31,500 nucleotides of DNA, from positions 1 to 31,500 of the forward strand of contig LVBO01000142.1 in assembly GCA_001604435.1 (NCBI GenBank). The letters are read 5' to 3'. The stretch is from Synergistales bacterium Syner_01 (GTDB lineage: Bacteria > Synergistota > Synergistia > Synergistales > Aminobacteriaceae). Shown in pieces: positions 9,200-31,500 of this stretch. How positions within the stretch are numbered: position 1 is the first letter of the stretch; every line of letters starts with the position of its first letter. Position numbers and translations under genes: made by a program. The notes beneath the pieces were generated by a model. That model saw only the letters and a list, made by a program, of their open reading frames with translations. It was not told the DNA's origin and did no database searches.

Positions 9200-9206
9200 G
9201 GCGCGC

Positions 9207-10418: not shown

Positions 10419-11129
10419 ATGGATCCCGTGATCGAGGAACTCCGAAAAGAATTCGCGGCGCTCGGCGACGAGGAGATCCGCCGGAGCGGCCGGCGTTTCT
10501 TCAAGGAGAGCGTGAACCTGTACGGCATAAAGACCGCCGTCGGCACGAAGATGGCCAAAGAGTATTTTAAAAAGCTCAAGGGAAGGGCGAAAGCGGATAT
10601 TTTCGCTCTTTGCGAGGAACTCTGGAAATCCGGTATGATGGAAGAGTCGTTCGTCGCCTGCAACTGGTCGTACGCCCTCCGGAAGGAGTACGCCGAAGAA
10701 GACTTCGCCGTCTTCGAGCGTTGGGTTTTCGAGTACGTCGGCAACTGGGCCTCCTGCGACACACTCTGCAACCACACCGTCGGCGCATTCATCGAGACTT
10801 TCCCGCAGTATGTGGAGCGGCTGAAGGAGTGGACGGCCTCGGAGAACCGGTGGGTCCGCAGGGCGTCGGCCGTTTCGCTGATCGTTCCCGCGCGGAACGG
10901 ACTCTTCCTCGACGACGTCTTCGACATCGCCGAGAGGCTTCTGCCCGACGCCGACGACCTCGTGCGGAAGGGGTACGGATGGCTGCTCAAGGCAAGCTGC
11001 GAAAAACACGAGGACGAGGTCTACCGCTATGTTCTGAGCAGAAAGGACGTCATGCCGAGGACCGCGCTGCGCTATGCGATAGAAAAGATGCCTCCGGAGA
11101 AAAAGAGAGAGGCGATGAAACGGTCGTAA
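10419..11129 (+). CDS. DNA alkylation repair protein (AlkD-like HEAT-repeat glycosylase)
   Basis: NWASCDTLC, ENRWVRRAS, DDLVRKGYGWLLK, MPRTALRYAIEK; start at ATG10419 inside the longer computed ORF. Confidence 0.9.
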   Translation: MDPVIEELRKEFAALGDEEIRRSGRRFFKESVNLYGIKTAVGTKMAKEYFKKLKGRAKADIFALCEELWKSGMMEESFVACNWSYALRKEYAEEDFAVFERWVFEYVGNWASCDTLCNHTVGAFIETFPQYVERLKEWTASENRWVRRASAVSLIVPARNGLFLDDVFDIAERLLPDADDLVRKGYGWLLKASCEKHEDEVYRYVLSRKDVMPRTALRYAIEKMPPEKKREAMKRS

Positions 11130-11284
11130 GCCGCATCACGGCATTTTCGGATCGTTGCGGCGTGCGGGGAAACGAGGCGAAGCGGCTGCATTGCGCAAAA
11201 AACAGTCTCTCTGCGACGGCGCCTCGTCGAGAGAATGAGAAAGCTCCTATGGAATGGAACTCGAAAGCGAGCTGGAAGAAGAGG

Positions 11285-13279: not shown

Positions 13280-15923
13280 AGCGCTCCGGTTGCGTGTCGC
13301 CGATCTGGAGCGCGCATTACGGAGAGGGTGTGCGTTCGTCGGAGTCGAAGACTGTTTCAGGGCGGCGTTCGAGTCCTCCGGCGTCGCGCAGTCGATCAAG
13401 TTGCTCACGGGAGAGATAACTATCAACAGAGCGTTCCGGGAGATGTTGGGCTATTCGGAGAACGATTGTCCTTCTTCTTTTTGGGAAGGGCTTACGGCTC
13501 CGGAGGACATCGAGTACAGCAGAAACAGGCTTGAGGCGCTTCTCGGCGGAGAAAGCGGTGCGGTACGCTATATCAAAAGGTATATCCATAAGAACGGCTC
13601 CTATGTTTGGGGGGACGTCAGTTTGACCCTCAGACGGAATGAAGAGGGGGAGCCGCTCTTCTTCATCGCCACGATCCTTGATATTTCCGAGAGGAGACGG
13701 GCGGAAGAAGCTTTACGGGAGAGCGAGGCCCGCTTGAAGCTGTTCATCGAACACGCTCCCGCGGCTCTGGCGATGTTCGACCGCCAACTGCGCTACCTTG
13801 CGGTCAGCAGACGCTGGATGAACGACTACGAACTGGGTGAACGGGATATCATCGGGGTTTCCGATTACGAGGTGTTTCCCGAAATCGACGAAAAATGGAA
13901 AGAGATACATCGTCGTGCGCTCTCGGGCGAGGTCGTCAAGGGCGATGACGATCCCTTTGAAAGAGCGGATGGCCGGGTGCAGTGGCTTCGGTGGGAGGCC
14001 CGCCCATGGTATGCGGGCAGTTCGAAAATCCAGGGGATCGTTGTCTTTACCGAGGACATCAGCGCAGTCAAACACGCGGAGTTCATGCAGCAGGAAAGTG
14101 AGGCAAAGTTTCGAAGCATTGTGGAAAATGCCCCGGATGCGATTTTCATCCAGACCGAAGGAAAGTTCGCGTATCTGAATCCTGCGGCATGCCGCCTTTT
14201 CGGAGCCTCGTCGCAGGAGGAGCTTCTGGGAACGCCTGTTCTGGAGCATGTCGATCCGCTCTTTCACGACGCGGTCCGCGGTCGTATCCGCAGACTGAAC
14301 GAAGATCGGCAGCCAGTGCGTGACTCCATGGAACAGCGGATGCTGCGGACGGATATGAGCGGGGTATGGGTGGAAACGACAGGGGAACCTTTCCTCTACA
14401 AGGGGAAGACGGGGGCGCTTGTCTTTGTTCGCGACATCACATGGCGGAAAGAAGCCCAGGCATCTCTCCGGGAGAGCGAAGAGCGCTTTCGCTGCATCTT
14501 CGAGGAAAATCTCTCCGTCATGTTCATCGTCGATCCTTCCACAGGCCGTTTCCTTGACGTGAACAAGGCATGCGTTGCGTTTTACGGATGGTCCAGAGAA
14601 GAGCTGCTGCGGATGCGAAGTCAGGATATCAATCTGTTGGGCGAGAGTTCTTTGCGGGAGATTCAAAAAGCGGCCGCCGGGGAGCATTCGTACTTCGAGT
14701 TCAGACATCGCCTGGCGGACGGGGGCATACGCGACGTGGAGGTCTTCACCAGCAGGATATCGGCGGGGGAGAAGCCTATTTTGTTTTGCATCGTCAACGA
14801 CATAACTTCCCGCAAGTCCGCGCAGCGCCAGGTGCGTCTTCTCGGAAGGGCCGTGGAACAGAATTCGGGCAGCATCATCATCACCGATGCCGAGCAGAGG
14901 ATAGAGTATGTCAACCCCGCATTCTCGCTTTCGACAGGCTATTCGGCTGACGAAGTGACCGGACGGCATGTCCGGGCGCTCAGATCGGAGGAGCACGGAG
15001 AGCTGTTCCACGAGGATGTATGGAAGACGCTCCTTTCGGGGCGCACTTGGAGGGGAGAGGTGCGGTCCCGAAAGAAGAGCGGCGAACTTTTCTGGGAGAA
15101 CGTCGTCATCTCGCCGATTCACGATGAAGGAATGTCGATATCGCATTTCATCGCGATCAAGGACGACATTACTGAGAAGAAACAGCTGATCGAGTCGCTC
15201 GTGCGGGCCAAGGAACGAGCGGAGGAGAGCGATCGCCTGAAAACGGCATTTTTGCAGAACATGTCGCACGAAATTCGAACACCGATGAACGGCATTCTCG
15301 GCTTCCTCGGTCTGTTGGACGAACCCGCCCTCGACGAGGATGAGCGGAGCGAATATATCCGGATAGTCAACTTCAGCGGTCAAAGACTTTTAAACACGAT
15401 CAACGACATCATCGAAATATCGAGAATAGAGTCCGGGGAGGTTTCTCTCCATATCGAGGAAGTCGATGTCGAACAGATGATGCGCTATCATCGGGATTTG
15501 TTCAGCCTGCAAGCTCAGGAAAAGGGTATCGGACTGACGCCGGCCGAATATCTCGTCGGCGACGCCGCGATCATCCGTACCGACAAGAACAAGCTGTACA
15601 GCACGCTGTCCAATCTTTTGGGCAATGCGGTCAAGTTCACGTGCAAGGGAGGCGTGGAGTTCGGCAATCGCCTCGAAGGGCAGAATCTGATTTTCTATGT
15701 GAAGGATACAGGGATCGGAATTCCGGAGCATCGACTGGGCGCCGTCTTCGAGCGTTTTATGCAGGCCGATCAGAGCAGCACCCGGCCGTACGAAGGCTCC
15801 GGACTGGGGCTCACCATCGCGAAGGCCAATGTGGAGGCGCTTGGAGGGCGCATTCGGGTTGTTTCCGAAGAGGGGAAGGGGAGCGTGTTCAGCTTCTCGA
15901 TACCGTACATTCGAATCTCGTGA
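13254..15923 (+). CDS. Cytoplasmic multi-PAS sensor histidine kinase (5 PAS-HisKA-HATPase)
   Basis: Five PAS/PAC units, SHEIRTPMN, NAVKFT, DTGIGI, GSGLGL; strong SD; overlaps upstream kinase by 26 nt. Confidence 0.93.
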   Translation: MRREKEELEALRLRVADLERALRRGCAFVGVEDCFRAAFESSGVAQSIKLLTGEITINRAFREMLGYSENDCPSSFWEGLTAPEDIEYSRNRLEALLGGESGAVRYIKRYIHKNGSYVWGDVSLTLRRNEEGEPLFFIATILDISERRRAEEALRESEARLKLFIEHAPAALAMFDRQLRYLAVSRRWMNDYELGERDIIGVSDYEVFPEIDEKWKEIHRRALSGEVVKGDDDPFERADGRVQWLRWEARPWYAGSSKIQGIVVFTEDISAVKHAEFMQQESEAKFRSIVENAPDAIFIQTEGKFAYLNPAACRLFGASSQEELLGTPVLEHVDPLFHDAVRGRIRRLNEDRQPVRDSMEQRMLRTDMSGVWVETTGEPFLYKGKTGALVFVRDITWRKEAQASLRESEERFRCIFEENLSVMFIVDPSTGRFLDVNKACVAFYGWSREELLRMRSQDINLLGESSLREIQKAAAGEHSYFEFRHRLADGGIRDVEVFTSRISAGEKPILFCIVNDITSRKSAQRQVRLLGRAVEQNSGSIIITDAEQRIEYVNPAFSLSTGYSADEVTGRHVRALRSEEHGELFHEDVWKTLLSGRTWRGEVRSRKKSGELFWENVVISPIHDEGMSISHFIAIKDDITEKKQLIESLVRAKERAEESDRLKTAFLQNMSHEIRTPMNGILGFLGLLDEPALDEDERSEYIRIVNFSGQRLLNTINDIIEISRIESGEVSLHIEEVDVEQMMRYHRDLFSLQAQEKGIGLTPAEYLVGDAAIIRTDKNKLYSTLSNLLGNAVKFTCKGGVEFGNRLEGQNLIFYVKDTGIGIPEHRLGAVFERFMQADQSSTRPYEGSGLGLTIAKANVEALGGRIRVVSEEGKGSVFSFSIPYIRIS

Positions 15924-16009
15924 CGAGGTCTTCGGCGATACATGCACGTTGATCGAAAACGACGTTCTTTGTTCCTTGCGAATGTCCTGCCGCCGGTTGA
16001 ATTCAGTCC

Positions 16010-17095
16010 TCAGAAGATGACGGCGAAGAGGAAGGGGAGCACCATCAGAATGCTCAGCAGCCTGACGGTCTGCAGAATGCTCACCTTCAACGGATCGGCG
16101 CCCATCTCCTCCGAGATGATGGACATCTGCGAGAGTCCTCCAAGCGAGGAGGAGAGAAGGCAGGTGGGGTAGTCCCACCCCGTCATCCTGTGGAGAAGCA
16201 CTCCGAGGAGGATGCTGCAGAGAAGCATGATCGCGGTGAGCGCGACGACAGGCAACCAGAGCATGCCGAACTGGTGCAGAGTAGGGATGGTGATGTTGGA
16301 GGCGATGATGATGCCGATGCCGATCTGGGCGACCGTCCGCAGTATAGAAGGCATCGGCGGAAGCTCTCCGCGGAGAAGATTCACCGCCGCAACCGCGAAC
16401 ATCGCGCCTGTGAGGATGCCGACAGGCAGCCGAAGAACGTACCCCGTAATGCCTCCGGCAAGCGCCGCGGCGAGCAGCACCACATACCCCTTCGCCGAGG
16501 GGGCCGCAACCGGTCCGAGCGGAGCAGGCTCGCCGTCTTCGGCAACGGGCGGCTCCACACGCAGCGGCGACGGCGACGGAAAACGGCTCCGCTCGCGACG
16601 GCCGAAGCGCTTCGTCCATACGCGGCAGACTACCGGAGTGATCAGGATCGCCGAGAGCAGGCGGAATACCTGGAGCAGCGTCACGCTTGCGACGTCCGCG
16701 CCAAGCGACATGGAGAGAAGCGCCATCTCCGCAATCCCTCCCGCCGTCGAGCCGAGGAACGCCGTCTGCGGGGAGAGGTCGCTCATCATGTACAGCGCGC
16801 CGCCTCCCAGCAGAGAGAGAATGAGCATGCTCAGAGAGACGACGAGGGCCGGGACGGGAAGCTCGCGGAGAAATGCGAGCGATTTTCTGTTTACCCGCAA
16901 GCCGACATAGCAGCCGATCACAAGATTGCTGTAGCGGGAGATCCACTGCAGATGCGTCTCGGGGAAAAAGCCCGCCAGGTTGAGGGCGCTCGCGAAGAAG
17001 AGCGAACCGAGGATCGCCGGAACAGGCAGAGAGAGTCTTTTAAAGATCAGGCAGCCGGCGGCGCCGACCGAAAAAAGCAGAAGAAACGCTGTCAT
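16010..17095 (-). CDS. AbrB-family (putative ammonia monooxygenase-like) membrane protein
   Basis: Two homologous hydrophobic halves with GSTAGGIAEM / SSSLGGLSQM and LQVFRL / LQTVRL motifs. Confidence 0.87.
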   Translation of the reverse strand: MTAFLLLFSVGAAGCLIFKRLSLPVPAILGSLFFASALNLAGFFPETHLQWISRYSNLVIGCYVGLRVNRKSLAFLRELPVPALVVSLSMLILSLLGGGALYMMSDLSPQTAFLGSTAGGIAEMALLSMSLGADVASVTLLQVFRLLSAILITPVVCRVWTKRFGRRERSRFPSPSPLRVEPPVAEDGEPAPLGPVAAPSAKGYVVLLAAALAGGITGYVLRLPVGILTGAMFAVAAVNLLRGELPPMPSILRTVAQIGIGIIIASNITIPTLHQFGMLWLPVVALTAIMLLCSILLGVLLHRMTGWDYPTCLLSSSLGGLSQMSIISEEMGADPLKVSILQTVRLLSILMVLPFLFAVIF

Positions 17096-17134
17096 GAGAA
17101 CGAATACAAACCTCCGAACCGCACGGTGCGAGTT

Positions 17135-17416
17135 TTAGTGATGACGAATAGCGAACGTGCTTTCGTCTTCCTTCGGCGGCGTCTCCAGCACGACCAGTCG
17201 GGCGACGGCGGCTGTCGACGGCCCCTTGCGGAGCCACCGCTCCATCTTTTCCATCGCCTCCCGCTCGCCCTGCGCGTGCACTTCGACCGCGCCGTCGGGC
17301 AGATTCCGGACCCATCCGGTCACGCCGAGTTTGAGCGCCATCCTCGCCGCTGAGTGGCGGAACCCGACGCCCTGTACCGTTCCCATGACGAGAAAGCGCT
17401 TGCGAACCAACGTCAT
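17135..17416 (-). CDS. acyP: Acylphosphatase
   Basis: GTVQGVGFR and GWVRNLPDGAVE signatures. Confidence 0.95.
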   Translation of the reverse strand: MTLVRKRFLVMGTVQGVGFRHSAARMALKLGVTGWVRNLPDGAVEVHAQGEREAMEKMERWLRKGPSTAAVARLVVLETPPKEDESTFAIRHH

Positions 17417-18330
17417 GCTCGTGCGACCGACAGTCCTTCGATGCGTTCGATTCTGGATTCCAGTGACGGGTGCGTGCTGAAGAGACTGTCCCTTCCTTTT
17501 TTATTCTTCCTGAGGGGGTTGACGATGTACAGATGCTGCGTCCCCCGGCTGGCGCCTTCGAGTTCGTTCGGGTCGCTCGTCAACTTTCTCAGGGCTGACG
17601 CCAACCCCGCAGGGTTCCGCGTCAGCTCGACCGCCGAGGCGTCCGCGAGGTACTCCCGCTGACGGCTGACCGCGAGCTGGATGATCGAGGCCAAGAGCGG
17701 CGCCAGAATCGCGAGCACGAGCGCCACGACCGCCATCACCGCCTGTCCCTTCCCCCCGTCGCTTGAACGGCTGCTGCGGCGTCGTCCGAAGAAGACGCTG
17801 CGCATGACCACATCGCAGATAAGCACGATCGAACCGACCATCACCGCCATCAGCATCGCGAAGCGGATGTCGTAATTCCGCACGTGCGACATCTCGTGCG
17901 CCATGACTGCCTGAAGCTCCTCGCGATTCAGCTTTTCCATCAGTCCGCGCGTGATCGCCACGCTCGCGTGCTGCGGATCGCGTCCAGTCGCGAAGGCGTT
18001 CATCGCGCCGTCCTCGATCATGTACACCTTCGGCATCGGGAGACCGGCTGCGATGGAGAGCTCCTCCACGACGTTCCAGAGCTGCGGGGCGTCTTCGTGA
18101 CGAATCTCCCTCGCGCCGCTCATCGAGAGGATCATGGACGCGCCCGCATACCACGAGATCAGAAAATAGATCACCGCGACCGCCGAGGCGACGATAAGCC
18201 CCGTGTACCACTCGCCTCCCCACCAGACGCCGACGGAGGCGCCCAGCCCGCCGAGCAGCAGCAGAAGCAAAAAGAAGAGAAGATAGCTCAGACGCTTGTT
18301 ATGCTCGATAAGCCCCTCGAAGCTGACCAT
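17413..18330 (-). CDS. htpX: HtpX-like M48 zinc metalloprotease
   Basis: NAFATG, HEMSH zinc motif, SRQREYLADA, FSTHP; N-terminal TM segments. Confidence 0.93.
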   Translation of the reverse strand: MVSFEGLIEHNKRLSYLLFFLLLLLLGGLGASVGVWWGGEWYTGLIVASAVAVIYFLISWYAGASMILSMSGAREIRHEDAPQLWNVVEELSIAAGLPMPKVYMIEDGAMNAFATGRDPQHASVAITRGLMEKLNREELQAVMAHEMSHVRNYDIRFAMLMAVMVGSIVLICDVVMRSVFFGRRRSSRSSDGGKGQAVMAVVALVLAILAPLLASIIQLAVSRQREYLADASAVELTRNPAGLASALRKLTSDPNELEGASRGTQHLYIVNPLRKNKKGRDSLFSTHPSLESRIERIEGLSVARA

Positions 18331-22814: not shown

Positions 22815-23354
22815 TTGAGGATCTTGTTTGTCGACGGGAATCCAAGCGCGGAAGACGACGTTTTCGGCGAGCGTCTTGCGGCGATGGAGCACGCTGTTGG
22901 GGGGCACGATGTCACGAGCTTCTGTCTCCGGGGTAAGGCGATTCATTCCTGCATCGGCTGTTTTGCGTGCTGGATACGCACGCCCGGAACATGTATCTTT
23001 CAGGATGATCACGTCGAGCTGCTGTGTTCGTTTCTGAAATCGGATGTTGCCGTTTTCGCCTCTCCCATGATCGCGGGTTTTTACTCCGCGCTTCTGAAGA
23101 CGGCGATCGACCGTGTCATCCCGCTTGCTCTGCCGTACATCGAGCTGGCGGACGGGGAGTGCCGTCACCCTCTTCGCTACGGTCGTTCCATGCCGAAGCT
23201 GGCGTTTCTGTACGAGCCGGAGGAAGATACGGACGCGGAGGATCTCCGGATCGTGTCCACGGCGTTCGAGCGCTTCGCCCGCAACGGGCACACGCGTTTT
23301 CTGTTCGCCCGGCCCTTGAGCGACAAGTCCGGAGGAGGTGCGCCATGCGATTGA
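22815..23354 (+). CDS. Flavodoxin-fold / iron-sulfur flavoprotein (Isf)-like protein
   Basis: CIGCFACWIRTPGTC (CX2CX2CX7C), FASPM, LLKTAIDR; TTG start with GAGGTGG SD. Confidence 0.85.
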   Translation: MRILFVDGNPSAEDDVFGERLAAMEHAVGGHDVTSFCLRGKAIHSCIGCFACWIRTPGTCIFQDDHVELLCSFLKSDVAVFASPMIAGFYSALLKTAIDRVIPLALPYIELADGECRHPLRYGRSMPKLAFLYEPEEDTDAEDLRIVSTAFERFARNGHTRFLFARPLSDKSGGGAPCD

Positions 23355-24013
23355 ACATCTTTAACTGTTCTCCGCGCGGCAAGAGGAGCAACACCAGGGT
23401 GCTTGCAGGAGCTTTTGCGGAGGGATTTCTTGAAACGGAAGGCCCTTATGGGCAGAACGAAGTGCGTGAGTATTTCATTTCGGATCCCGGTGAATTCCGG
23501 CTGGCTTCGGAGGTTTTCGGGGAACCTTGCGTCGCGCTGATCGCCTTCCCGATCTACGTGGACGCGATGCCCGCGATCGCGAAATCCTTCATCGAGGAGA
23601 TCGCCGCCTACAAGGGGCGCTGTTCGTCGACCAGAATGCTCTTTCTTATTCAGTCGGGATTTCCGGAGGAAACGCATACTCGGCCGATGAAGGCGTACCT
23701 CGAAAAACTGGCGAAACGCCTCGGCGCCCCTTGCGACGGAGTCATCAGGATGGGCGGCGGCGAGGGGGCGCGGGACCGTGTGCGCGGATCGAAGAGCGGC
23801 GGAAAGATGTTCGAACGCTACCGGATGCTCGGCAGAGGGTATGCTGCGAACGCTGTTCTCGACGAGGCGATCCTTGCGAAGCTCGCAGGGCCGAAGCGCC
23901 TTCCCGCGCTGTTGGCGCCGCTCGTTTTGCCGCTGGCGAACTTTTTTTTCTGGGACAGGGAGCTGAAACGGAACGACGCGTTCGGAAAACGCTTCGACAA
24001 GCCGCTGGAGTGA
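23345..24013 (+). CDS. Flavodoxin-fold NAD(P)H-dependent oxidoreductase
   Basis: FNCSPRGKRSNT FMN-phosphate loop, FPIYVDAMPA, FLIQSGFPE; overlaps upstream gene by 10 nt. Confidence 0.85.
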   Translation: MRLNIFNCSPRGKRSNTRVLAGAFAEGFLETEGPYGQNEVREYFISDPGEFRLASEVFGEPCVALIAFPIYVDAMPAIAKSFIEEIAAYKGRCSSTRMLFLIQSGFPEETHTRPMKAYLEKLAKRLGAPCDGVIRMGGGEGARDRVRGSKSGGKMFERYRMLGRGYAANAVLDEAILAKLAGPKRLPALLAPLVLPLANFFFWDRELKRNDAFGKRFDKPLE

Positions 24014-24055: not shown

Positions 24056-25198
24056 ATGATTACCGTCAGGCAGCTGTTCGACCTGCCGGTGTTTCAGGGA
24101 AGCGAAATTTTAGCCGGAGAAAAGGGAGTCGACCATCCTGTACGATGTATCGATATCGCGGAAGTTCCGGATCCTTCATTATGGCTTGATCCCGGCGTTT
24201 TTATTCTGACGACGGCGTACGCTTTTCATAAAGAAAAGAGATCGTTGATGTTTTTCCTTGAGAGCCTTGTAAGGAGCCGGGCTGCGGGGCTTGGTATCAA
24301 GCTCGGTCGTTTTCTCGACGAACTGCCCCGCGAGTTCGGCGAATACGCCGACAAATTCAACATGCCGGTGATCCTTCTGCCGTTGGAGCTTCGATACACT
24401 CACGCAATTCGCTCGGTTACCGAGGCGATTTTGAAGGATGAAGAAAGGGATCCGGATTTCTCCGATCTATCCGAGAGTTTGTCCAAACTTCTTTTTTGCG
24501 AATCGTACGAAGACGCTCTAGCAACCTTCGAGGCGGCCGGGATCTCGCGCTCGAGTAAGGGGGTAGTTCTGATGATAGCCGGGACCCCCTCCGAGACTGC
24601 GGTTCTTACCAGCGTCATCGCCGGGATAGTCCAAAGCGAAGGAGATCTTTTCGCCGTAGTGAGGACGTCGTCCGAGACTCTTATTCTTTCTCGTCCTTTC
24701 GTTCTTGAAGAACATGACTTTTCGAAAGCGGTGAAGTTCTTCCCTAAGGGGACATTTGTTACCTCGGGCGGCGAATATTCGCTTGAGGAAATCCGTTCTT
24801 CATATGAAGAAGCGAAATTGTGCAGGCGTCTATTGAAAATTTTCGCATCACCCGAGGGAGCGTACTCGAAAGCGGAGTTGGAGGTGTTTTTCCCTTTCCT
24901 CCAAGGCGAGAGCAGCGGTCTCCTGAAAGAAAACGCACTGCGGCTGCTGAGCCCTGTCATCGAATACGATTCCGCGAATAGAGCCTCGTTGCTGCAAACG
25001 TTGTGGATGTTTATGCTGTGCGATTGCGATCACGCCAAAACCGCCCAGAGGCTCCATCTTCACCGCAACTCGCTTCGTTATCGCTTGGCAAAAATCCGCC
25101 GTCTGCTTCCGGAGAATAGTTTAAACGGAGTGGCCTTTCATAGACTGTTCCTCGCGCTTATGATCTACTTTGCGCACTGTGCACCCTGCACAAATTGA
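24056..25198 (+). CDS. PucR-family transcriptional regulator
   Basis: N-terminal PucR sensor (ILAGEKGVDHPV..EVPD..W...LTT), C-terminal HTH (YD...LLQTL...TAQRLHLHRNSLRYRL). Confidence 0.93.
   Translation: MITVRQLFDLPVFQGSEILAGEKGVDHPVRCIDIAEVPDPSLWLDPGVFILTTAYAFHKEKRSLMFFLESLVRSRAAGLGIKLGRFLDELPREFGEYADKFNMPVILLPLELRYTHAIRSVTEAILKDEERDPDFSDLSESLSKLLFCESYEDALATFEAAGISRSSKGVVLMIAGTPSETAVLTSVIAGIVQSEGDLFAVVRTSSETLILSRPFVLEEHDFSKAVKFFPKGTFVTSGGEYSLEEIRSSYEEAKLCRRLLKIFASPEGAYSKAELEVFFPFLQGESSGLLKENALRLLSPVIEYDSANRASLLQTLWMFMLCDCDHAKTAQRLHLHRNSLRYRLAKIRRLLPENSLNGVAFHRLFLALMIYFAHCAPCTN
25177..25193. promoter_or_regulatory. Candidate PucR-family operator (inverted repeat)
   Basis: CTGTGC-N5-GCACAA overlapping last regulator codons, about 110 nt upstream of the OPT start; extra half-site TTGTGC at 25210-25215. 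Confidence 0.55.
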
Positions 25199-25301
25199 AA
25201 TCCGCGCTTTTGTGCTCGCCAATAGGCGGAAAGTCTTGTATTGCTGAACTCTTCATATCGTATCCTTATCTTCAAATTTTCTATCATGAGGAGGATATGT
25301 T

Positions 25302-26945
25302 ATGGAGGTGCGAAAGGAACATGTCAAAGCGCTTGAAATCAGGACGATAGTTCTTAGTATCTTGGTATCCGCCGCTTCGGCGGTCATCTGTATGCAGATA
25401 ATCTCTCGGATAGGCGTCACGCCGAATACTTCGATCATCGGCGCCCTTCTTGCGATGCTTTTGGCGCGTATGCCCATCGAGGGGATGAAATCGTTCCGTT
25501 CGCTGGACCGACAAAATCTGGTGCAAACGATGACCTCCGGCGCCGGCTTCGCGGCCGCCAATTGTACGCTCCTTTCGGTCTCCATTTTTTACGCGTACGG
25601 AGAGTTGTCGCTCCTCTTCCCCATGCTGCTGGGAGCCGGTATAGCCACTCTGATCGGTATGCATCTTGTGTACCGGACATTCGATTCCGAACTTTTCCCG
25701 GCCGCCGGTTCCTGGCCTCCCGGTGTTGCGACGGCGCAGGCGCTGATCGCGGGCGACGAAGGTGGAAAGAAGGGCCGCAGTCTTCTCATCGCAATCATTC
25801 TTGGCGCGGTGGGAAGCAGCCGGCTTTTCGCGTTTCCGACACTGGGTATAGGAGGACTTCCGATGGCGGGTGTCGGTATCGCGTTCATCGCGAATGTGAC
25901 GGCGATGATTGCGCTTGCGATCGGACTCATCGTTCGAGGTTACTTCCCCGTTATTTCGACCTGGATTGCTCCCATTGCGGAGAGCATGGGGTTTGCAAGT
26001 CTTCCCGTCGATCTCGGGAAGACTTATATTCCACACGGTTTTATGATCGGCGCGGGCGCAATTACTCTCGTGCAGGCGTTGATGATCATTTTCAAAGACA
26101 AGAAAGGGGCTTCGACGAGCGGCGTTGTCGAGCGGTACGCAGTCTCCGCGGCCTTGTTGAAGAAGACTCTCTCCTACCATGTTCTCCTCTTTGCGGCGGG
26201 GGCGATCTCTTTGGCCGTTCTGAGCGGAATCTGGACGGAGATGTCTATCGAAAAATTGTTCCTCTGGATTGTATGGTGTACGTTCTCCGCAACCGTCGCG
26301 CCCGTTCTCGTCGGATTGTCGGCGATGCACTCCGGCTGGTTCCCCGGTTTCGCAGTTTCAATCATCTTCCTCAGTCTTGGTATCTTCATGCACTTCCCTT
26401 CCCACGCGCTTGTCCTTCTTACCGGATATGTCGCAAGCACGGGGCCATGTTTCGCCGATATGGGATACGATCTCAAAACGGGATGGATAATCCGCGGTCG
26501 GGGGGCCAACCCCGAGTATGAAATCGACGGACGTCGTCAACAGATGATCTCGGAGGTCATCGGCGGGGTCGTCGCTGTTGTTGTAACCGGGCTGTTGATG
26601 CGGATGCACTTCAAGCTGGATATGATTCCTCCCGTCAGTCGAGTGTTTGCTGCTACAGTGAAAGCGGGACTGCATCCTGAAATTTTAAGACAGTTGATTG
26701 TTGCAAGCGTTTTCGGCGCAGCGCTTCAGTTTGTGGGCGGAGCAAGGCGAGCCGTCGGAATCCTTTTCGCGACGGGTTTACTGATCAACAACCCGATCTA
26801 CGGAGTCGGTCTGCTTGTTGCGCTGTTGATTCGTTGGCCCTTGGAAAGAAAGTACAAGTCGGAACTGGAGATCTATGGCGGTGGTTTCGTCGCCGGCGAC
26901 GGGATCTACGGTTTCGTGAACGCGCTCGTACGGACGTTCGGCTAA
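25302..26945 (+). CDS. OPT/YSL-family oligopeptide transporter
   Basis: Highly hydrophobic 547 aa; GVTPNTSIIGA, QNLVQT, WPPGVATA, GPCFADMGYDLKTG, GFVAGDG; SD GAGGAGG. Confidence 0.9.
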   Translation: MEVRKEHVKALEIRTIVLSILVSAASAVICMQIISRIGVTPNTSIIGALLAMLLARMPIEGMKSFRSLDRQNLVQTMTSGAGFAAANCTLLSVSIFYAYGELSLLFPMLLGAGIATLIGMHLVYRTFDSELFPAAGSWPPGVATAQALIAGDEGGKKGRSLLIAIILGAVGSSRLFAFPTLGIGGLPMAGVGIAFIANVTAMIALAIGLIVRGYFPVISTWIAPIAESMGFASLPVDLGKTYIPHGFMIGAGAITLVQALMIIFKDKKGASTSGVVERYAVSAALLKKTLSYHVLLFAAGAISLAVLSGIWTEMSIEKLFLWIVWCTFSATVAPVLVGLSAMHSGWFPGFAVSIIFLSLGIFMHFPSHALVLLTGYVASTGPCFADMGYDLKTGWIIRGRGANPEYEIDGRRQQMISEVIGGVVAVVVTGLLMRMHFKLDMIPPVSRVFAATVKAGLHPEILRQLIVASVFGAALQFVGGARRAVGILFATGLLINNPIYGVGLLVALLIRWPLERKYKSELEIYGGGFVAGDGIYGFVNALVRTFG

Positions 26946-27595
26946 TGACGGGAAGAAGACGGGTCGGACTGATCCGCGTGCTTTCCACGACTGATATGAA
27001 GTTGCTCGGATTGCACGGCGAGATCATCATGGAACGATTCCCCGGACTGGATGTATGTTCCGTTTGCATACCGGATCAGCCCGAGGGAGTTTATGACGAG
27101 GAAACCGAGATGCTTGCCGTTCCGAAAGTGGTTTTGCTCGCGCAAGCAATGGAGTTGGATGGTATGGACGCTGTGATCGTAAGTTGCTTCGGCGATCCCG
27201 GAGTTACCCAAGCAGCCGCCTTGCTGAATATCCCGGTGATCGGAGCCGGCCGGGCCTCGGCGTCTATTGCGCGATCTCTGGATGTCCCGACAGGAGTGCT
27301 TGGTCTCATTCCGGAGATTCCTGAAGGCGCGAAAATCGTGCTGGGAGAGCGGTTGCTTTCGAATATCGTGCCGGAAGGGGTTGTTTCCACTCTCGACCTG
27401 ATGACGCCGAAGGGAAAGTCGTCGGTGCTGGAGGCGGGAATGAAACTAAAAAAGGCGGGCGCGAAGGCGCTCCTTTTAGGGTGTACCGGTATGTCGACCA
27501 TCGGCGCCGCACAACTGCTGAGAGAGACGTTGAAGATGCCGGTGGTCGACCCTGTTCGATCGGCCGGCGCGGTCGTGCGGGCTCTTATGGAATGA
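26945..27595 (+). CDS. Asp/Glu/hydantoin racemase family protein
   Basis: Two-Cys motifs VSCFGDPG and LGCTGM, PVVDPV; TAATG coupling to OPT. Confidence 0.9.
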   Translation: MTGRRRVGLIRVLSTTDMKLLGLHGEIIMERFPGLDVCSVCIPDQPEGVYDEETEMLAVPKVVLLAQAMELDGMDAVIVSCFGDPGVTQAAALLNIPVIGAGRASASIARSLDVPTGVLGLIPEIPEGAKIVLGERLLSNIVPEGVVSTLDLMTPKGKSSVLEAGMKLKKAGAKALLLGCTGMSTIGAAQLLRETLKMPVVDPVRSAGAVVRALME

Positions 27596-27614
27596 AAGAG
27601 GGGAGTGCTGCCGC

Positions 27615-28703
27615 ATGTCCGAAATGATTATCACGGAAGCGATCGCCGAAGCCGCGATTCTGGGAGGCGCTGTTCTCGGAGGCGGCGGAGGAGGAGGAAT
27701 GTCCAATGGAAGGAAAAACTATCGGGAAGCTCTTTCCTTGGGAGACGTTCGACTTGTGGATGTCGACGATATCCCGGCGGATACTCTTTTGATCACAGCC
27801 TCCGCAGTGGGAGCCCCTGCCGCGGAGGAAGCGCATGTCGGAAAAGAGGGCTATCTGCGTGTAATCGATCTTCTCATCAAGAACGGCTGTCCGAAGCCGG
27901 GCGGATTTATACCCAACGAATGCGGCGGCAGTTCGATCACCAACGGGTGGATACCCGCGGCTCTTATGGGGCTTCCCGTAGTAGACGCCCTCTGCAACGG
28001 CAGGGCGCATCCCACCGGAACGATGGGATCGATGGGGCTTCATAGAAAACCGAACTATGTCTCTCGTCAATCCGCGGCGGGAGGCAACCCCGAGAAGGGG
28101 GCGTACCTCGAGATATATGTTGAAGGAACGCTGGAGTCAACGGCGGCCCTTGTACGTGCGGCGGCGGACAAAGCCGGAGGGCTTGTGGCGGTGGCGCGCA
28201 ATCCCGTCGACGCGGCCTTCGTGAAAAAGAACGGCGCATGCGGAGCCCTCAAGCAGGCGATACGACTTGGCGAGCGCATGCTAAACGCTGCGCACGGAGG
28301 AGGAGAACAGGTTGTCTCCCGAGTCGTAGAATATCTCGGAGGAACTATCGTGACAAGGGGCGAGGTGTTCTCTCTGGAGCTAGTCACCAAGGGCGGTTTC
28401 GACTCGGGAATCATCGCGATAGGCGACTGCGGGACCACGTTCTGGAATGAGTTTATGACCCTGGAACGAAGGGGAGAGCGCCTGGGGACTTTCCCCGATC
28501 TTATCATGACGCTCCGCGGGGAAGACGGACTTCCGGTCACGACGGCGGAGCTGCGAAAAGGACAGGATGTCTTTCTGATCCATGTGCCTTCGGAAAAACT
28601 CATCCTGGGAGAGGGAATGCGCTGCGCGGAGCTGATGCGAAGCATCGAGTCCGTAGTGGAAAAGGAGATTCTTCCGTATATCGGAAGCGTTCTTCGAACA
28701 TGA
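27615..28703 (+). CDS. DUF917 family protein
   Basis: GGAVLGGGGGG, SAVGAP, NECGG, DALCNGRAHPT, TFPDLI motifs. Confidence 0.85.
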   Translation: MSEMIITEAIAEAAILGGAVLGGGGGGGMSNGRKNYREALSLGDVRLVDVDDIPADTLLITASAVGAPAAEEAHVGKEGYLRVIDLLIKNGCPKPGGFIPNECGGSSITNGWIPAALMGLPVVDALCNGRAHPTGTMGSMGLHRKPNYVSRQSAAGGNPEKGAYLEIYVEGTLESTAALVRAAADKAGGLVAVARNPVDAAFVKKNGACGALKQAIRLGERMLNAAHGGGEQVVSRVVEYLGGTIVTRGEVFSLELVTKGGFDSGIIAIGDCGTTFWNEFMTLERRGERLGTFPDLIMTLRGEDGLPVTTAELRKGQDVFLIHVPSEKLILGEGMRCAELMRSIESVVEKEILPYIGSVLRT

Positions 28704-28725
28704 AAAAGGAGATGGGGTTCTCATC

Positions 28726-29688
28726 ATGTCCATGAAATATGCAATGGAAGCCTATGAAATGTTGGATAGCCCTTCGGTGTCCGGCGAATCGGTCAAGTCC
28801 GCTCTTGTCGGAGCGGGTGTGAAAGAACGCGACATAACGGTGAAGACCGTTCGAGGACCGAAAGGACATACGGATTTTGTCAAGGTCTGGATACCGGGAG
28901 CGAAAGGGAAGCGCAGCGGAGGAGTCGCCCCCACGCTCGGTATCGTCGGAAGACTCGGCGGGATCGGCGCGCGCCCGGAGAGGATCGGGCTTGTTTCGGA
29001 CGGCGACGGCGCCGTCTCCGCGATCGCGACGGCGATGAAGTTGGGGCGTATGGCGAGTATCGGCGACAGTCTCGAAGGGGACGTCTTCGTTTCGACGCAC
29101 GTATGTCCGAACGCCCCTACTCGTCCGCACGATCCCGTTCCGTTTATGGATTCGCCGATCGATATGATGATCGCGAACGGGGAGGAGATGAGCGACGAAC
29201 TCGACGCCGTCCTGTCCATCGATACCACGAGAGGGAACAGGGTAATCAATCATAAGGGGTTCGCGATCTCCGCGACGGTAAAAGAAGGGTACATTCTCAG
29301 AGTGAGCGAGGACCTTCTATCATTGATGACCTCCGTTACCGGGAAACTTCCAGTCGTCCTTCCGATCACCATGCAGGACATAACGCCCTACGGGAACGAC
29401 GTGTATCATTTGAACAGCATTCTCCAGCCGTGCACCGCCACGAAAGCTCCGGTAGTGGGCGTCGCGCTGACGTCGGAATCGGCCGTCCCCGGGTGCGCCA
29501 CAGGAGCGTCGCATATTGTCGATATCGAACTTGCGGTTCGTTTCGTCGTCGAGGTTGCCAAGTATTTTGGCGAAGGGAAGGCGAAGTTCTTCAACGAGAA
29601 AGATTTTTCGCGTCTGGTAGAACTTTACGGTCCGATGACGCATCTGCAGACGATGGGAAAAAACGGGAAGCAGCCGCAGAAACTATGA
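28726..29688 (+). CDS. DUF1177 family protein
   Basis: TDFVKV, GRLGGIGARP, VSDGDGA, HDPVPFM, SIDTTRGNR, QDITPYGN, HLNSILQP, GCATGASH. Confidence 0.87.
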   Translation: MSMKYAMEAYEMLDSPSVSGESVKSALVGAGVKERDITVKTVRGPKGHTDFVKVWIPGAKGKRSGGVAPTLGIVGRLGGIGARPERIGLVSDGDGAVSAIATAMKLGRMASIGDSLEGDVFVSTHVCPNAPTRPHDPVPFMDSPIDMMIANGEEMSDELDAVLSIDTTRGNRVINHKGFAISATVKEGYILRVSEDLLSLMTSVTGKLPVVLPITMQDITPYGNDVYHLNSILQPCTATKAPVVGVALTSESAVPGCATGASHIVDIELAVRFVVEVAKYFGEGKAKFFNEKDFSRLVELYGPMTHLQTMGKNGKQPQKL

Positions 29689-30545
29689 AATGTCAGTTCA
29701 CGCTCACTGTATCGGAAGGAAAGCGCTTGATCGCCAAAGGAATCGCTTCTCTTCCCTCGCTACGAAAAGCGCTCGACGGAGGATTGATTCTGCTGAAGGG
29801 CGGTACTACGGTCTCCGCTCTTTCGGAAGAGCTGTGCGGCCGGCCTCTGCGTATTTCCGGGAGGATCACCCCCCGCGGTACGGTTTCGTCGGGAAGTTCC
29901 GATGTCGAGGATGCGCACTCGATTTTGTTACGGAAAGGCGTACCGGAAAAGGCGGACGGTCGTCTGGCGGAGATAGGAAGAGAAATGGGGCCGGACGACG
30001 TTGCCGTCTGCGGCGCGAACCTTGTCGATCATGATGGGAACGCCGTAATGATGGCGGGACGCGATTTGTGCGGCGAACCCGGGAGCGTGATCCCGTCGCT
30101 TGAGTCGGAGGGGGTTCTCTGTATGGTGGCAGCGGGGCTGGAGAAATTCTCTCCCTACCCTGTGAGGGAATCATGCCACTTTGCGGGGCGGAAGTCTTCT
30201 TCATGGGCAATGGGAATGGCGGTAGGACTCGTCCCCGTTCCGGGAAGGGTTTTTTCGGAGATGGATGCTCTCCTCGCGCTGGGAGCAGATCGCTGCATGC
30301 TCGTCGGGCGCGGCGGTATTTGCGGCGCGGAGGGGGCGTCGACGTTCGTGGTCGAGGGGGACGCACGGCGGTTGAAGGAACTTCTGAAGCTTGTCCTTTC
30401 TCTGAAGGGGGCGGAAGAAAGCGGGAGTCGGTCTTCTCTGACCGAGTGTATTCATTGCGGCCCCAACAGGACGACGCATCTAGCGTGTATCTACGGAGGT
30501 TGCGCAGAGGAGGAAGGATCATGGAAAGGCGTATCGGTACGGTGA
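29685..30545 (+). CDS. Conserved hypothetical protein, Cys-rich C-terminus
   Basis: ATGA overlap with DUF1177 stop; LTVSEGKRLIAK, KGGTT, GANLVD, GLEK, MGMAVGL, GAEGA; ECIHC...HLACIYGGC. Confidence 0.8.
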   Translation: MKCQFTLTVSEGKRLIAKGIASLPSLRKALDGGLILLKGGTTVSALSEELCGRPLRISGRITPRGTVSSGSSDVEDAHSILLRKGVPEKADGRLAEIGREMGPDDVAVCGANLVDHDGNAVMMAGRDLCGEPGSVIPSLESEGVLCMVAAGLEKFSPYPVRESCHFAGRKSSSWAMGMAVGLVPVPGRVFSEMDALLALGADRCMLVGRGGICGAEGASTFVVEGDARRLKELLKLVLSLKGAEESGSRSSLTECIHCGPNRTTHLACIYGGCAEEEGSWKGVSVR

Positions 30546-31195
30546 CGATAGGGCAATCGCCTCGAGTGGACGTTATTCCCGAGATTGCCGAAATTTTAGG
30601 AACCGATGTCGAAATAGTGGAGGCGGGGGCGCTCGACGGGCTTTCGAGGGAGGAAATCGCCGGAATGGCTCCTTCGAAGGGGGATTATGTTCTCGTCACG
30701 CGCCTCGCCGACGGCGCCTCCGTACAGGTTGCGGAGCGGTACATCACACCGCGTATTCATCGGAAGATCGACGAGCATTTTCACAATGGCATACAGTTGG
30801 TTCTGTTGTTGTGCACAGGGGAGTTCCCCGGTTTCGAAACGGGAGGTCTGCTTATCCGTCCGCAGAAAGTGCTGTTCAATGCAGTTGCGGCAGTGGCGGA
30901 GGGGTTGCGGCTGGGTATTCTGACGCCGTCCGGGGAACAGATCGAACAATCGGAGCATAGGTGGGGTGTTCTGGCGAAAGATGTTCGCGCCGTTCCCTCC
31001 TCCCCGTACAGCGACGCAATGGAGCAGGCCGCGAACGCTGCGCGTGCTCTCGATGAGTGGGGGGCGCAGATTATAGTTATGGACTGTATCGGCTATACGG
31101 GGGAGATGCGGAAGCTGGTCAGGGAGATTACGGGCAAGCCGGTTGTGTTGGCGCGGGGAATCGTGGCCCGGACAGTCGCGGAACTGCTTGAATGA
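30521..31195 (+). CDS. AroM family protein
   Basis: TIGQSPRVD, EAGALDGL, LVTRL.DG, LLCTGEF, MDCIGY; SD GAGGAGG. Confidence 0.9.
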   Translation: MERRIGTVTIGQSPRVDVIPEIAEILGTDVEIVEAGALDGLSREEIAGMAPSKGDYVLVTRLADGASVQVAERYITPRIHRKIDEHFHNGIQLVLLLCTGEFPGFETGGLLIRPQKVLFNAVAAVAEGLRLGILTPSGEQIEQSEHRWGVLAKDVRAVPSSPYSDAMEQAANAARALDEWGAQIIVMDCIGYTGEMRKLVREITGKPVVLARGIVARTVAELLE

Positions 31196-31220
31196 AATCG
31201 ACCCGGGAGGATTGAGAAGA

Positions 31221-31500
31221 ATGGATTTCATAACCGTCGCGAAGCGTCTTTTAACGGATAACATGGGCCTGCGGCCCACGGAATCTCTACTCGTCGTGTA
31301 CGATGAAACGACGCTCCGCATCGGAGAAAGTCTTTTCGAGGCGGGAACGATGCTGGGAGCTCGTTCTTTGGCTCTGCGCATACCGCTGCTCGCGAAGAAC
31401 GGCGAAGAGCCCTTTCGGATCGTTGCAGGAGCGATGGAGGAGTCGGATGTTGTCGTCGCGGCTACGGAGAAATCTCTGACGCATACTCGAGCCAGAAAGA
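31221..31500 (+). CDS. M29-like / leucyl aminopeptidase family protein, 3' truncated by window
   Basis: Own translation: MDFITVAKRLLTDNMGLRPTESLLVVYD...KNGEEP...AMEESDVVVAATEKSLTHTRARK; GGAGG SD; not in the ORF track because it has no stop in the window. Confidence 0.8.
   Translation, partial: MDFITVAKRLLTDNMGLRPTESLLVVYDETTLRIGESLFEAGTMLGARSLALRIPLLAKNGEEPFRIVAGAMEESDVVVAATEKSLTHTRARK

Follow-up and report, generated by a model that had tools for sequence, protein, structure and literature searches.

We identified, in a wastewater bacterium of the Synergistaceae, a PucR-family regulator gene followed by a seven-gene operon whose gene order recurs across phyla and whose RNA is present in situ. 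Tentatively, at a little short of an even chance, we interpret the operon as inducible and catabolic, serving to break down a small compound of peptide origin on which ordinary peptidases fail; cyclic dipeptides (2,5-diketopiperazines), or another cyclic amide of this kind with epimerisable α-carbons, are the most likely substrates.

The window, that is, the whole stretch of 31,500 nucleotides that was analysed, is an entire contig, and the contig end truncates the last gene. Between 24056 and 31500 it carries eight co-directed open reading frames, given here with two regulatory features.

24056..25198, + strand: PucR-family transcriptional regulator (380 aa), a short form with the PucR N-terminal domain and HTH_30 (PF07905, 102.5 bits; PF13556, 56.1 bits)
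25178..25192, no strand: palindrome TGTGC-N5-GCACA, candidate PucR operator, within the regulator gene's final codons
25199..25301, + strand: regulator-operon intergenic region, putative operon promoter; the 27-nt block 25246-25272 aligns identically in a same-genus relative
25302..26945, + strand: OPT-family transporter, importer (547 aa; PF03169, 72.7 bits)
26945..27595, + strand: hydantoin-racemase-like two-cysteine racemase or epimerase (216 aa; PF01177, 80 bits)
27615..28703, + strand: DUF917 / S-Me-THD-like protein, candidate ring-opening hydrolase (362 aa; PF06032, PF20906)
28726..29688, + strand: DUF1177 protein with a predicted zinc-exopeptidase fold (320 aa; PF06675, 443 bits)
29685..30545, + strand: unnamed protein (P0001) with a predicted ISOCOT (RpiA/eIF2B-like) fold and a Cys/His tail (286 aa)
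30521..31195, + strand: AroM, second racemase-fold protein (224 aa; PF07302, 262.5 bits; PRK10481, 236 bits, above the cut-off of 198)
31221..31500, + strand: short M29/NicX-like metallohydrolase, first 93 codons, cut by the contig end

The initial annotation had described eight co-oriented genes coupled through TAATG (26943-26947), ATGA (29685-29688) and a 25-nt overlap (30521-30545), and all of this was borne out, as were its family assignments when compared with profile matches. At the remaining junctions the genes are 19, 22 and 25 nt apart, and a GGAGG-type ribosome-binding site is present in every case; the absence of a clear terminator between genes was likewise confirmed, with 17 weak matches in a terminator scan all falling within coding sequence and none in the intergenic gaps. 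In a wastewater metatranscriptome, the depth over the operon was approximately ten times that over the regulator gene and the DNA upstream; in metatranscriptome X2, coverage of the PucR gene was near zero and was absent at 24992-25291, the first metatranscriptome contig beginning at 25292. The proposed eight-gene unit therefore stands for the seven structural genes, whereas the 103-nt gap between the PucR and OPT genes, together with the RNA coverage, separates the regulator from the operon. The operon is switched on in wastewater, and the data indicate that a promoter of its own, likely within 25199-25301, drives its seven genes; the co-expression that had been suggested is thus supported by contig-level coverage, which falls short of proving a single transcript. 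In a same-genus relative the operon terminates after the M29-like gene.

The order OPT-racemase-DUF917-DUF1177-unnamed-AroM-M29-like was kept in six of the seven DUF1177-bearing Synergistaceae relatives, the seventh (L013) keeping this order but having neither racemase nor unnamed gene. The full order was also found in other phyla (L017-L023 and L039). Because the order recurs in all seven relatives, L013 being two genes short, and in other phyla, the arrangement is far beyond chance. The initial annotation had proposed a gene-neighbourhood survey, and the counts from 57 DUF1177 loci flanked on each side by 6 kb or more revealed genuine co-occurrence across many bacterial and archaeal phyla: DUF1177 was accompanied by AroM at 43 loci, DUF917 at 28, OPT at 27, the M29-like gene at 24 and the racemase at 22. 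Peptide transport, by OPT or by an Opp/Dpp ABC system, was represented at 45 of the 57, the ABC system standing in for OPT at 18; at 4 loci an NCS1 hydantoin/allantoin-type permease took the place of the peptide transporter. Carriers range from gut bacteria to hot-spring archaea and are mainly peptide fermenters, and the module is common in archaea without murein. Its transporters are solely importers, its regulators belong to the PucR or IclR families, which are best known from catabolic operons, and additional exopeptidases (M20, S51 peptidase E and M24) recur beside it; this gene content argues for a catabolic, peptide-linked role.

PucR genes were present at 18 of the 57 loci, 15 of them also with DUF917, racemase or M29-like genes. 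Related loci totalling 1.41 Mb contained 10 exact copies of the pattern TGTGC-N5-GCACA (~1.3 expected), in every case immediately upstream of the first module gene, at loci from two phyla; in 9 cases an identified PucR gene ends at the palindrome or just before it. The palindrome is identical in the same-genus locus L011, and an additional half-site, TTTGTGC, lies 3' of it at 25209-25215. Judged from sequence, the palindrome is likely the operator for PucR, and its recurrence at the same position beside PucR genes in two phyla supports the earlier proposal of PucR control.

In the scheme that we propose for the substrate, the reactions and their order, the PucR-family protein would bind the palindrome in the final codons of its gene and activate the promoter in the 103-nt gap. 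The compound would be imported by OPT, epimerised at a ring α-carbon by the hydantoin-racemase-like enzyme and opened through water addition by DUF917; AroM and the ISOCOT-fold protein may epimerise another centre or the linearised product, which DUF1177 and the M29-like hydrolase would cleave to amino acids. Besides the conserved module, the palindrome and the RNA coverage speak for this reading, as do the retained active-site residues and the AroM fusions described below.

The OPT orthologues of the relatives are 62-87% identical and occupy the same position. The racemase retains both catalytic cysteines (C81 and C180, conserved across 32 sequences), and its nearest solved structure is PDB 2EQ5 (E 4.9e-57), a 'hypothetical hydantoin racemase' of Pyrococcus horikoshii that aligns over residues 6-211 and has both catalytic Cys motifs, although it is an archaeal structural-genomics entry without demonstrated substrate and the operon enzyme comes from the Synergistaceae. 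Hydantoin and allantoin racemases were also matched, as was OpaE (PDB 9QBX), a fungal Asp/Glu-racemase-family epimerase of oxepinamide biosynthesis with the same superfamily and cysteine dyad. OpaE is distant from the operon racemase (E 5.6e-07) and is a biosynthetic tailoring enzyme, not a member of a catabolic operon; it epimerises an amino-acid α-carbon inside a tricyclic nonribosomal-peptide derivative (PMC12661438), so that the ring epimerisation step has precedent. By analogy, the substrates of these solved relatives point towards a cyclic amide, as do the NCS1 permeases at 4 loci.

Conserved positions in DUF917 comprise a Gly loop (22-27), E102, D124, R130, N278, E279 and D295. The sole characterised chemistry of the family acts on thiohydantoin rings and is thiocarbonyl desulfuration, not amide hydrolysis; the ring substrate suggests a cyclic amide by analogy, whereas the reaction type counts against the favoured reading. 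The best NCBIfam matches of the protein are thiohydantoin desulfurase (282 bits) and S-methyl thiohydantoin desulfurase (257 bits), and it shares both Pfam families with these ergothioneine desulfurases (NF058529, NF058532) and aligns with the two models over their full length, but the equivalog cut-offs, 440 and 450 respectively, are far higher than these scores. Because DUF917 scores under both, ergothioneine is unlikely, as the initial annotation had judged, and the desulfuration step that it included found no support. Ergothioneine-type thiohydantoin catabolism with DUF917 as the desulfurase is thus very improbable: the partner enzymes of that pathway are absent from the operon, no ammonia-lyase or urocanase family was recurrent among the module's neighbours at 80 loci, transport is by peptide-type systems, and the urocanase-family gene that the genome does possess is on a separate 1.7-kb contig.

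Of all module members, DUF1177 is the best conserved and the most regularly present, with 57-88% identity between bacterial and archaeal phyla. Its AF2 model (pLDDT 80) matched M17 aminopeptidases in Foldseek (E 7.5e-10) and gave Z 15-17 to M20, M28, M42, M17 and M18 enzymes in VIA-align, and on this model the fold is that of a zinc-exopeptidase; its metal ligands could not be mapped, because no solved peptidase matches at the sequence level. Carbamoylase-type M20 amidases were one match among many (6c0d, Z 14.7; 1z2l, Z 14.8). This match bears on a hyu-like utilisation of hydantoins or N-carbamoyl amino acids, in which the racemase would act on 5-substituted hydantoins, DUF917 would be a non-canonical hydantoinase and DUF1177 a carbamoylase. 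Operons of the hyu type (permease, hydantoin racemase, hydantoinase and N-carbamoyl-amino-acid amidohydrolase) share with the module the logic of import, two-Cys racemisation of a cyclic amide, ring opening and M20-fold hydrolysis; their racemase is homologous to that of the module, solved relatives of which are annotated as hydantoin racemases (2EQ5, 3QVJ), and both the thiohydantoin activity of the DUF917 family and the NCS1 permeases fit. We nevertheless consider this reading improbable, given that the transporter is of peptide type at 45 of the 57 loci, that no dihydropyrimidinase-type or HyuA/B hydantoinase recurs at the surveyed loci, DUF917 and DUF1177 standing in their places, and that AroM as a second racemase, its ISOCOT partner, the M29-like hydrolase and the extra peptidases are additions that a hyu pathway would hardly need. 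Furthermore, 5-substituted hydantoins are not known to be common in nature, whereas the module occurs in many phyla and habitats.

AroM has two cysteines, C98 and C189, that do not vary among 35 sequences. The unnamed protein matched no Pfam or NCBIfam model and had 607 representatives at E ≤ 0.001 among 1.84 billion sequences; its AF2 model (pLDDT 88.9) resembles 1vb5 (Z 9.8) and 3a11 (Z 9.5). Because natural fusions join it to AroM (P0264, P0267 and a 502-aa AFDB entry), it likely works as an AroM partner. The M29-like fragment is 48-83% identical to the N-termini of full-length orthologues (314 aa), which match PF02073 (36 bits) and NicX (7cn3, E 0.006) and keep E245, H271, H289 and D291; the earlier label of aminopeptidase calls for adjustment, the protein being a short, divergent M29/NicX-like form.

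Many loci have the DUF1177-AroM core but lack DUF917 or the racemase; this counts against the favoured reading, since the core may act on a linear peptide. Accordingly, salvage of linear, peptidase-resistant di- or tripeptides with D- or isomerised residues (D-Asp, isoAsp, D-Ala or D-Glu, from aged-protein or cell-wall debris) is a possible, if on balance unlikely, explanation, in which AroM and the racemase would epimerise an in-peptide residue, hydrolysis of the peptide would then fall to DUF1177, the M29-like enzyme, M20 or peptidase E, and DUF917 would be an accessory amidase. The minimal recurring unit of peptide transporter, DUF1177 and AroM fits such a role, as do Opp/Dpp and OPT, which carry linear peptides, the recurring peptidase E, M20 and M24 dipeptidases and the peptide-fermenting carriers. 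However, DUF917, known solely for five-membered-ring chemistry, is left without a role; the racemase is nearer to hydantoin and allantoin racemases than to Asp or Glu racemases; the NCS1 permeases do not carry linear peptides; and many carriers are archaea without murein, although these could scavenge it. To our knowledge, the dipeptide epimerases characterised so far are enolase-superfamily enzymes and do not have the Asp/Glu/hydantoin-racemase fold.

No characterised pathway maps onto the cluster, and no assay of any module enzyme from any organism was found in the literature; the initial description of the cluster as uncharacterised holds to that extent, but the cluster type had been noted bioinformatically. 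The relevant passage of Andreas and Giessen (Nat Commun 2024, PMC11055893) reports PF01177, DUF917, AroM, OPT/ABC peptide transporters and peptidases as enriched around non-CDPS cyclodipeptide oxidases, which is consistent with a cyclic amide substrate. In contrast to those neighbourhoods, cyclodipeptide oxidase subunit B was not detected in this genome (86% complete) and did not recur in the 80 surveyed loci, which argues against the favoured reading. That passage does not mention DUF1177, the ISOCOT-fold protein, a PucR operator or peptidase E; new here are the palindrome, the operon RNA coverage, the predicted folds of DUF1177 and of the unnamed protein, the fusion of the latter with AroM, and the proteobacterial peptidase E. 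Since cyclodipeptide oxidases are tailoring enzymes in known pathways, and OpaE is a tailoring epimerase, the genes might instead serve to make or tailor a natural product of modified-peptide type; this is hardly probable, as no synthetase (NRPS, CDPS or ATP-grasp) or exporter recurs, the substitutes for OPT are binding-protein-dependent ABC systems and hence importers, the regulators are of the PucR and IclR families, and several exopeptidases are present.

For cyclic dipeptides in particular, the proteobacterial versions of the module carry peptidase E (S51), the E. coli member of which is an Asp-X dipeptidase. Diketopiperazines resist peptidases, yet they are degraded inducibly by bacteria via unidentified enzymes, Asp-containing rings often being preferred (PMC3852281), and this preference alongside peptidase E suggests, by analogy, that cyclic dipeptides are the substrate.

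The eight co-oriented genes that the initial annotation had placed between 24056 and the contig end were all recovered as plus-strand open reading frames of the families claimed, and the tight junctions it had reported (TAATG, ATGA and a 25-nt overlap) are exact in the sequence. The other gaps of the operon measure 19-25 nt, with a GGAGG-type ribosome-binding site in each, and a terminator scan found none in any intergenic gap, as had been proposed.

Genes of the module and its regulator (window coordinates, strand, product and family)
24056-25198, plus strand, PucR-family regulator (PF07905 and PF13556)
25302-26945, plus strand, OPT transporter (PF03169)
26945-27595, plus strand, Asp/Glu/hydantoin racemase (PF01177)
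27615-28703, plus strand, DUF917 protein, S-Me-THD-like (PF06032 and PF20906)
28726-29688, plus strand, DUF1177 protein (PF06675, 443 bits)
29685-30545, plus strand, unnamed protein of 286 aa (no family)
30521-31195, plus strand, AroM (PF07302, 262 bits)
31221-31500, plus strand, first 93 codons of an M29-like protein (family from orthologues only)

At 31.5 kb the window makes up one whole contig of a metagenome-assembled genome (86% complete, 683 contigs), and the closest named relatives of its proteins belong to Synergistaceae and Aminivibrio. Positions 540-18330 carry unrelated genes, encoding a response-regulator diguanylate cyclase, a B12-binding radical SAM protein, a glycogen-branching-type enzyme, a DNA alkylation repair domain protein, two large PAS histidine kinases and an M48 peptidase. 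The gene at 23024-24013, directly upstream of the regulator, reached 22.9 bits against a flavodoxin-like fold, short of the cut-off of 27. Its synteny is kept among same-genus relatives, including one that lacks the PucR gene (locus L010), and close to its 3' end, at 23926-23949, a hairpin precedes a T-run.

The window stretch is present in public wastewater RNA libraries. By word depth, a crude measure, contigs of metatranscriptome X2 covered 25292-29779 at 13-18 and the remaining operon at 4-10, against 0-1.8 over the PucR gene and the 4 kb upstream, while X1, probably a DNA run, was flat at about 14-17 over the whole stretch. X2 contigs span gene junctions, at 26898-27390 that of OPT and racemase and at 28011-29779 those of DUF917, DUF1177 and the unnamed gene, assembled contigs being no proof of a single transcript; the first contig starts at 25292, which is 10 nt 5' of the OPT start codon. 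Sparse pieces from X8, a second metatranscriptome of the same study, mapped only inside the operon. Set against the silent flank, the depth over the operon speaks for in situ expression of the seven genes from a promoter within the 103-nt gap between the PucR and OPT genes, separately from the regulator. Scanning this gap revealed no convincing sigma-70 promoter or consensus. A 27-nt block within it (25246-25272), just upstream of the first X2 contig (25292), has been kept in a same-genus relative even though its flanks have diverged, and probably holds promoter elements; the start of transcription is expected near 25270-25292.

The regulator belongs to the PucR class by both its PucR N-terminal domain (102.5 bits) and its C-terminal HTH_30 domain (56.1 bits), and scored far below all NCBIfam equivalog cut-offs checked (PmfR, AdeR and CdaR). 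Within the last codons of its gene lies a palindrome, TGTGC-N5-GCACA (25178-25192), with an additional half-site at 25209-25215; palindrome, half-site and the 25246-25272 block are all identical in the same-genus relative, with 74% identity between the two PucR proteins. One exact copy in the window is unremarkable alone, at least one being found in 29 of 100 shuffles. Across 1.41 Mb from 80 DUF1177 loci, 10 exact copies were found where about 1.3 are expected, all 10 just upstream of the first module gene and nine where an identified PucR gene ends or shortly beyond. Their carriers are Synergistaceae (L017 and L020), Blautia and other Lachnospiraceae (L048, L050, L060, L064, L068 and L087), Alicyclobacillus (L051) and another Bacillota genome (L083). 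The palindrome thus has good comparative support as a candidate PucR operator upstream of the operon promoter. In L051 (3774-5223) an NCS1 permease is encoded downstream of the same palindrome.

Of 41 genomes searched for DUF1177, 8 have it, namely that of the window and seven relatives at the genus, family or order level; six of these seven keep the order OPT, racemase, DUF917, DUF1177, unnamed gene, AroM and M29-like, and the seventh (L013) is without the racemase and the unnamed gene. A wider scan of one genome per prokaryotic species yielded at least 595 loci, of which the best 80, with DUF1177 protein identities of 57-88%, were analysed. They span Synergistota, Bacillota (including gut Lachnospiraceae), Enterobacterales, Burkholderia, Actinomycetota and Verrucomicrobiota among the bacteria and Thermococci, Thermoplasmata and Bathyarchaeia among the archaea. 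All open reading frames of the 80 loci were clustered, recurrent clusters were named by Pfam, and neighbours on the DUF1177 strand within 7 kb were counted in the 57 loci flanked by 6 kb or more on each side. The families of the operon co-occur with DUF1177 across phyla, bearing out the grouping of the initial annotation; as the loci are those most similar to the query and related genomes are not independent, the counts describe this sample and do not amount to a statistical test.

Families neighbouring DUF1177 (number of 57 loci)
AroM, 43
DUF917, 28
OPT transporter, 27
M29-like protein, 24
Racemase, 22
Opp/Dpp-type ABC importer, 18
PucR regulator, 18
IclR regulator, 14
M20 peptidase, 14
Unnamed protein, 8
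S51 peptidase E, 6

An OPT or ABC system was present in 45 of the 57 loci, and the module comes in three flavours. The window's type, found also in Bacillota and archaea, combines PucR, OPT, racemase, DUF917, DUF1177, AroM and the M29-like protein with or without the unnamed protein; the second, of Proteobacteria and Actinomycetota, combines IclR, OPT, DUF1177, AroM and peptidase E with or without a racemase; and the third consists of an Opp/Dpp ABC system, DUF1177 and M20. In 4 of the 80 loci an NCS1 permease of the cytosine/purine/allantoin type (cluster c44) replaces the peptide transporter. Across Synergistota, Enterobacterales, Actinomycetota, Thermococci and Bathyarchaeia, DUF1177 is far more conserved than its operon partners (24-83% identity for AroM), which suggests strong structural constraint (perhaps from a large oligomer), frequent transfer or both.

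Each protein of the module was compared with family models and solved structures. The OPT transporter matched PF03169 in two stretches (72.7 bits against a gathering threshold of 25.8) and, at 547 aa, is shorter than the 623-position profile. The racemase exceeded its PF01177 threshold (80.3 bits against 31), and its catalytic cysteines C81 and C180, conserved in 32 sequences, line up with the Cys motifs found in its closest match in the PDB, the Pyrococcus horikoshii entry 2EQ5 (E 4.9e-57). Putative hydantoin racemases, an allantoin racemase and OpaE matched more distantly; OpaE acts as an epimerase on an amino-acid residue in tricyclic nonribosomal-peptide derivatives (PMC12661438). It is homology to entries annotated as hydantoin racemase that links the protein to a putative activity of this kind.

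Both domains of the DUF917 protein were detected (PF06032 at 76.6 and PF20906 at 83.8 bits, cut-off 27), and its alignments to the models of thiohydantoin desulfurase (NF058529; 282.2 bits, cut-off 440) and S-methyl thiohydantoin desulfurase (NF058532; 257.4 bits, cut-off 450) run end to end with scores below these equivalog cut-offs, placing it in another branch of this family. The residues conserved in it comprise a glycine-rich loop, E102, D124, R130, N278, E279 and D295; a PDB sequence search returned nothing useful. The ergothioneine pathway was rejected as an assignment for the operon on the missed cut-offs and the absence of its partner enzymes: profile searches of the window found neither ergothionase nor urocanate hydratase, in line with the initial annotation, and no ammonia-lyase or (thio)urocanate hydratase recurs in the 80 related loci. 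The genome's only urocanase-family gene (979-1650 on contig C376, locus L097) lies on a 1.7-kb contig apart from the operon and probably serves ordinary histidine utilisation, unlinked to it. The same genome carries a second DUF917 paralogue (1624-2706, minus strand, contig C136, locus L100) beside genes for a MATE transporter, a metallo-beta-lactamase-fold protein, DUF1576 and DUF1254/DUF1214, in a neighbourhood free of DUF1177, AroM and racemase.

The DUF1177 protein matched PF06675 over its full length (443.3 bits, profile positions 2-272 of 272). Its AlphaFold (AF2) model (pLDDT 80) was matched to M17 aminopeptidases by Foldseek (E 7.5e-10) and, with VIA-align, to many M20, M28, M42, M17 and M18 enzymes at Z 15-17 over 216-250 residues; the predicted structure is a zinc-exopeptidase fold (clans MH/MF). 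Single-sequence and profile searches of the PDB returned no relative and no sequence-level alignment to any solved peptidase, and the invariant residues include many Asp, His, Glu and Cys, which could not be assigned to metal-ligand positions. For the M29-like protein, the 93-aa window fragment had no Pfam match; full-length orthologues gave 36.4 and 29.4 bits to PF02073 (gathering threshold 27), spanning only profile positions 185-348 of 406. These orthologues are 314 aa long, compared with about 400 for M29, retain Glu, His and Asp motifs and bear a faint likeness to the M29-fold dioxygenase NicX.

AroM scored well above the thresholds of both PF07302 (262.5 bits against 23.8) and PRK10481, the E. 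coli AroM model (236.2 against 198), and its C98 and C189 are invariant. PDB sequence searches with AroM and with the unnamed protein yielded nothing useful. For the latter, a search of 1.84 billion proteins gave 607 representative relatives at E <= 0.001; of its homologues, 120 were listed with source names, and none of these bears a functional name. It carries an invariant Cys/His tail. Its model (pLDDT 88.9) drew only weak ISOCOT matches from Foldseek (best E 1.1e-03); the exhaustive aligner was needed to match it to 1vb5 (eIF2B-related, Z 9.8), 3a11 (ribose-1,5-bisphosphate isomerase, Z 9.5) and RpiA 1uj4 (Z 7.4) over 129-150 residues, and the core is predicted to be an ISOCOT fold (RpiA/eIF2B/DeoR-C/CoA-transferase-like). 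In two independent representatives of about 500 aa, domain searches found a complete AroM domain (246 and 222 bits) fused to the unnamed domain; the AlphaFold DB has an entry for a comparable fusion of 502 aa, which may be one of those two proteins. These natural fusions and the translational coupling through the 25-nt overlap onto aroM are what argues that the unnamed protein works as a partner of AroM, co-folding of the two (score 0.00, mark 0.32) being uninformative either way on binding. Among its relatives (P0321 and P0363), the unnamed protein is also found joined by its C-terminal half to an HTH_3 DNA-binding domain and, in its whole length, to Clp_N repeats, hinting that the ISOCOT domain can act in ligand binding, as it does in DeoR/SorC regulators.

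The occurrence of importers only, catabolic-type regulators and several exopeptidases points to the catabolism of a peptide-like compound; a biosynthetic reading was considered and set aside. Salvage of linear peptides with D-residues or isoAsp is the main rival account of that compound, and it is favoured by the DUF1177-AroM core, which often stands without DUF917 or without the racemase. We lean instead to a peptide-derived cyclic amide, on account of the two racemase-fold enzymes, the only known chemistry of one family member, which is on five-membered ureide rings, the hydantoin/allantoin-type NCS1 permease standing in for the peptide transporter in four loci, and the enrichment of the same families around cyclodipeptide oxidases reported in a 2024 bioinformatic study, which noted this cluster type (PMC11055893). 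The module resembles the hyu system in logic but is distinguished from the hyu operon by its peptide-type transporter, the canonical hydantoinase and the NCS1 hydantoin permease of that operon both being absent from the window. Non-CDPS cyclodipeptide oxidase clusters differ in having nitroreductase-like A and DUF6092 B subunits; since no oxidase was found for the module, we do not place it among them, although the search of the window's own genome (86% complete) for the B subunit (DUF6092, PF19585) was a weak one, control genomes being silent as well.

Among cyclic amides, diketopiperazines fit best. They arise spontaneously from peptides as cyclic dipeptides, epimerise readily, act as signals and abound in food, guts, digesters and hot environments. 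Peptidase E of E. coli is an Asp-X dipeptidase. Diketopiperazines resist peptidases, and their bacterial degradation is inducible, by enzymes that had not been identified in 2013 (PMC3852281); our literature search returned no later identification of such enzymes and no gene for cyclic dipeptide hydrolysis. Several degraders favour Asp-containing rings (PMC3852281), a possible, if speculative, reason for peptidase E in the proteobacterial flavour. Tentatively, and regarding it as rather unlikely as a whole, we propose that the module is the missing, widely distributed pathway of 2,5-diketopiperazine degradation. In that case DUF917 would be the first diketopiperazine hydrolase to be identified, and the ring and dipeptide epimerases would be the hydantoin-racemase-like protein together with an AroM-ISOCOT heteromer. 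DUF1177 would represent a new family of zinc dipeptidases, and the PucR-type activator would sense the cyclic dipeptide; we infer every one of these reaction assignments.

The literature search returned no functional study of DUF1177 (PF06675), DUF917 or the AroM family (PF07302). DUF1177, AroM and this branch of DUF917 have no demonstrated function in this context, and with one nameless family they make up one of the more widespread gene modules still without a function. To the cluster type noted in 2024 the window adds the cross-phylum PucR palindrome, RNA support in situ, fusions of the unnamed protein with AroM confirmed by domain search, and the division into three flavours, including the variants that carry peptidase E or NCS1. 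Were the module a diketopiperazine pathway, several DUFs would gain functions, the recovery of nitrogen and carbon from cyclic dipeptides by peptide fermenters would be explained, and enzymes for making or removing chiral dipeptides would be at hand; the conserved candidate operator, expression in situ and many cultured carriers make the hypothesis directly testable. These carriers include Serratia marcescens, Pantoea, Burkholderia territorii, Brevibacillus borstelensis, Paenibacillus macerans and Blautia caecimuris, and DUF1177 and DUF917 are both present in Haloferax volcanii too.

Beyond the contig end, the 3' border of the operon could be followed in relatives. The M29-like gene closes the operon in a same-genus relative, where the gene after it is convergent. 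In a relative of the same order (L015), the stretch 3' of the M29-like gene (4457-7115) encodes, on the same strand, a MOSC-domain protein, an acetamidase/formamidase-family protein and a DUF364/DUF4213 protein.
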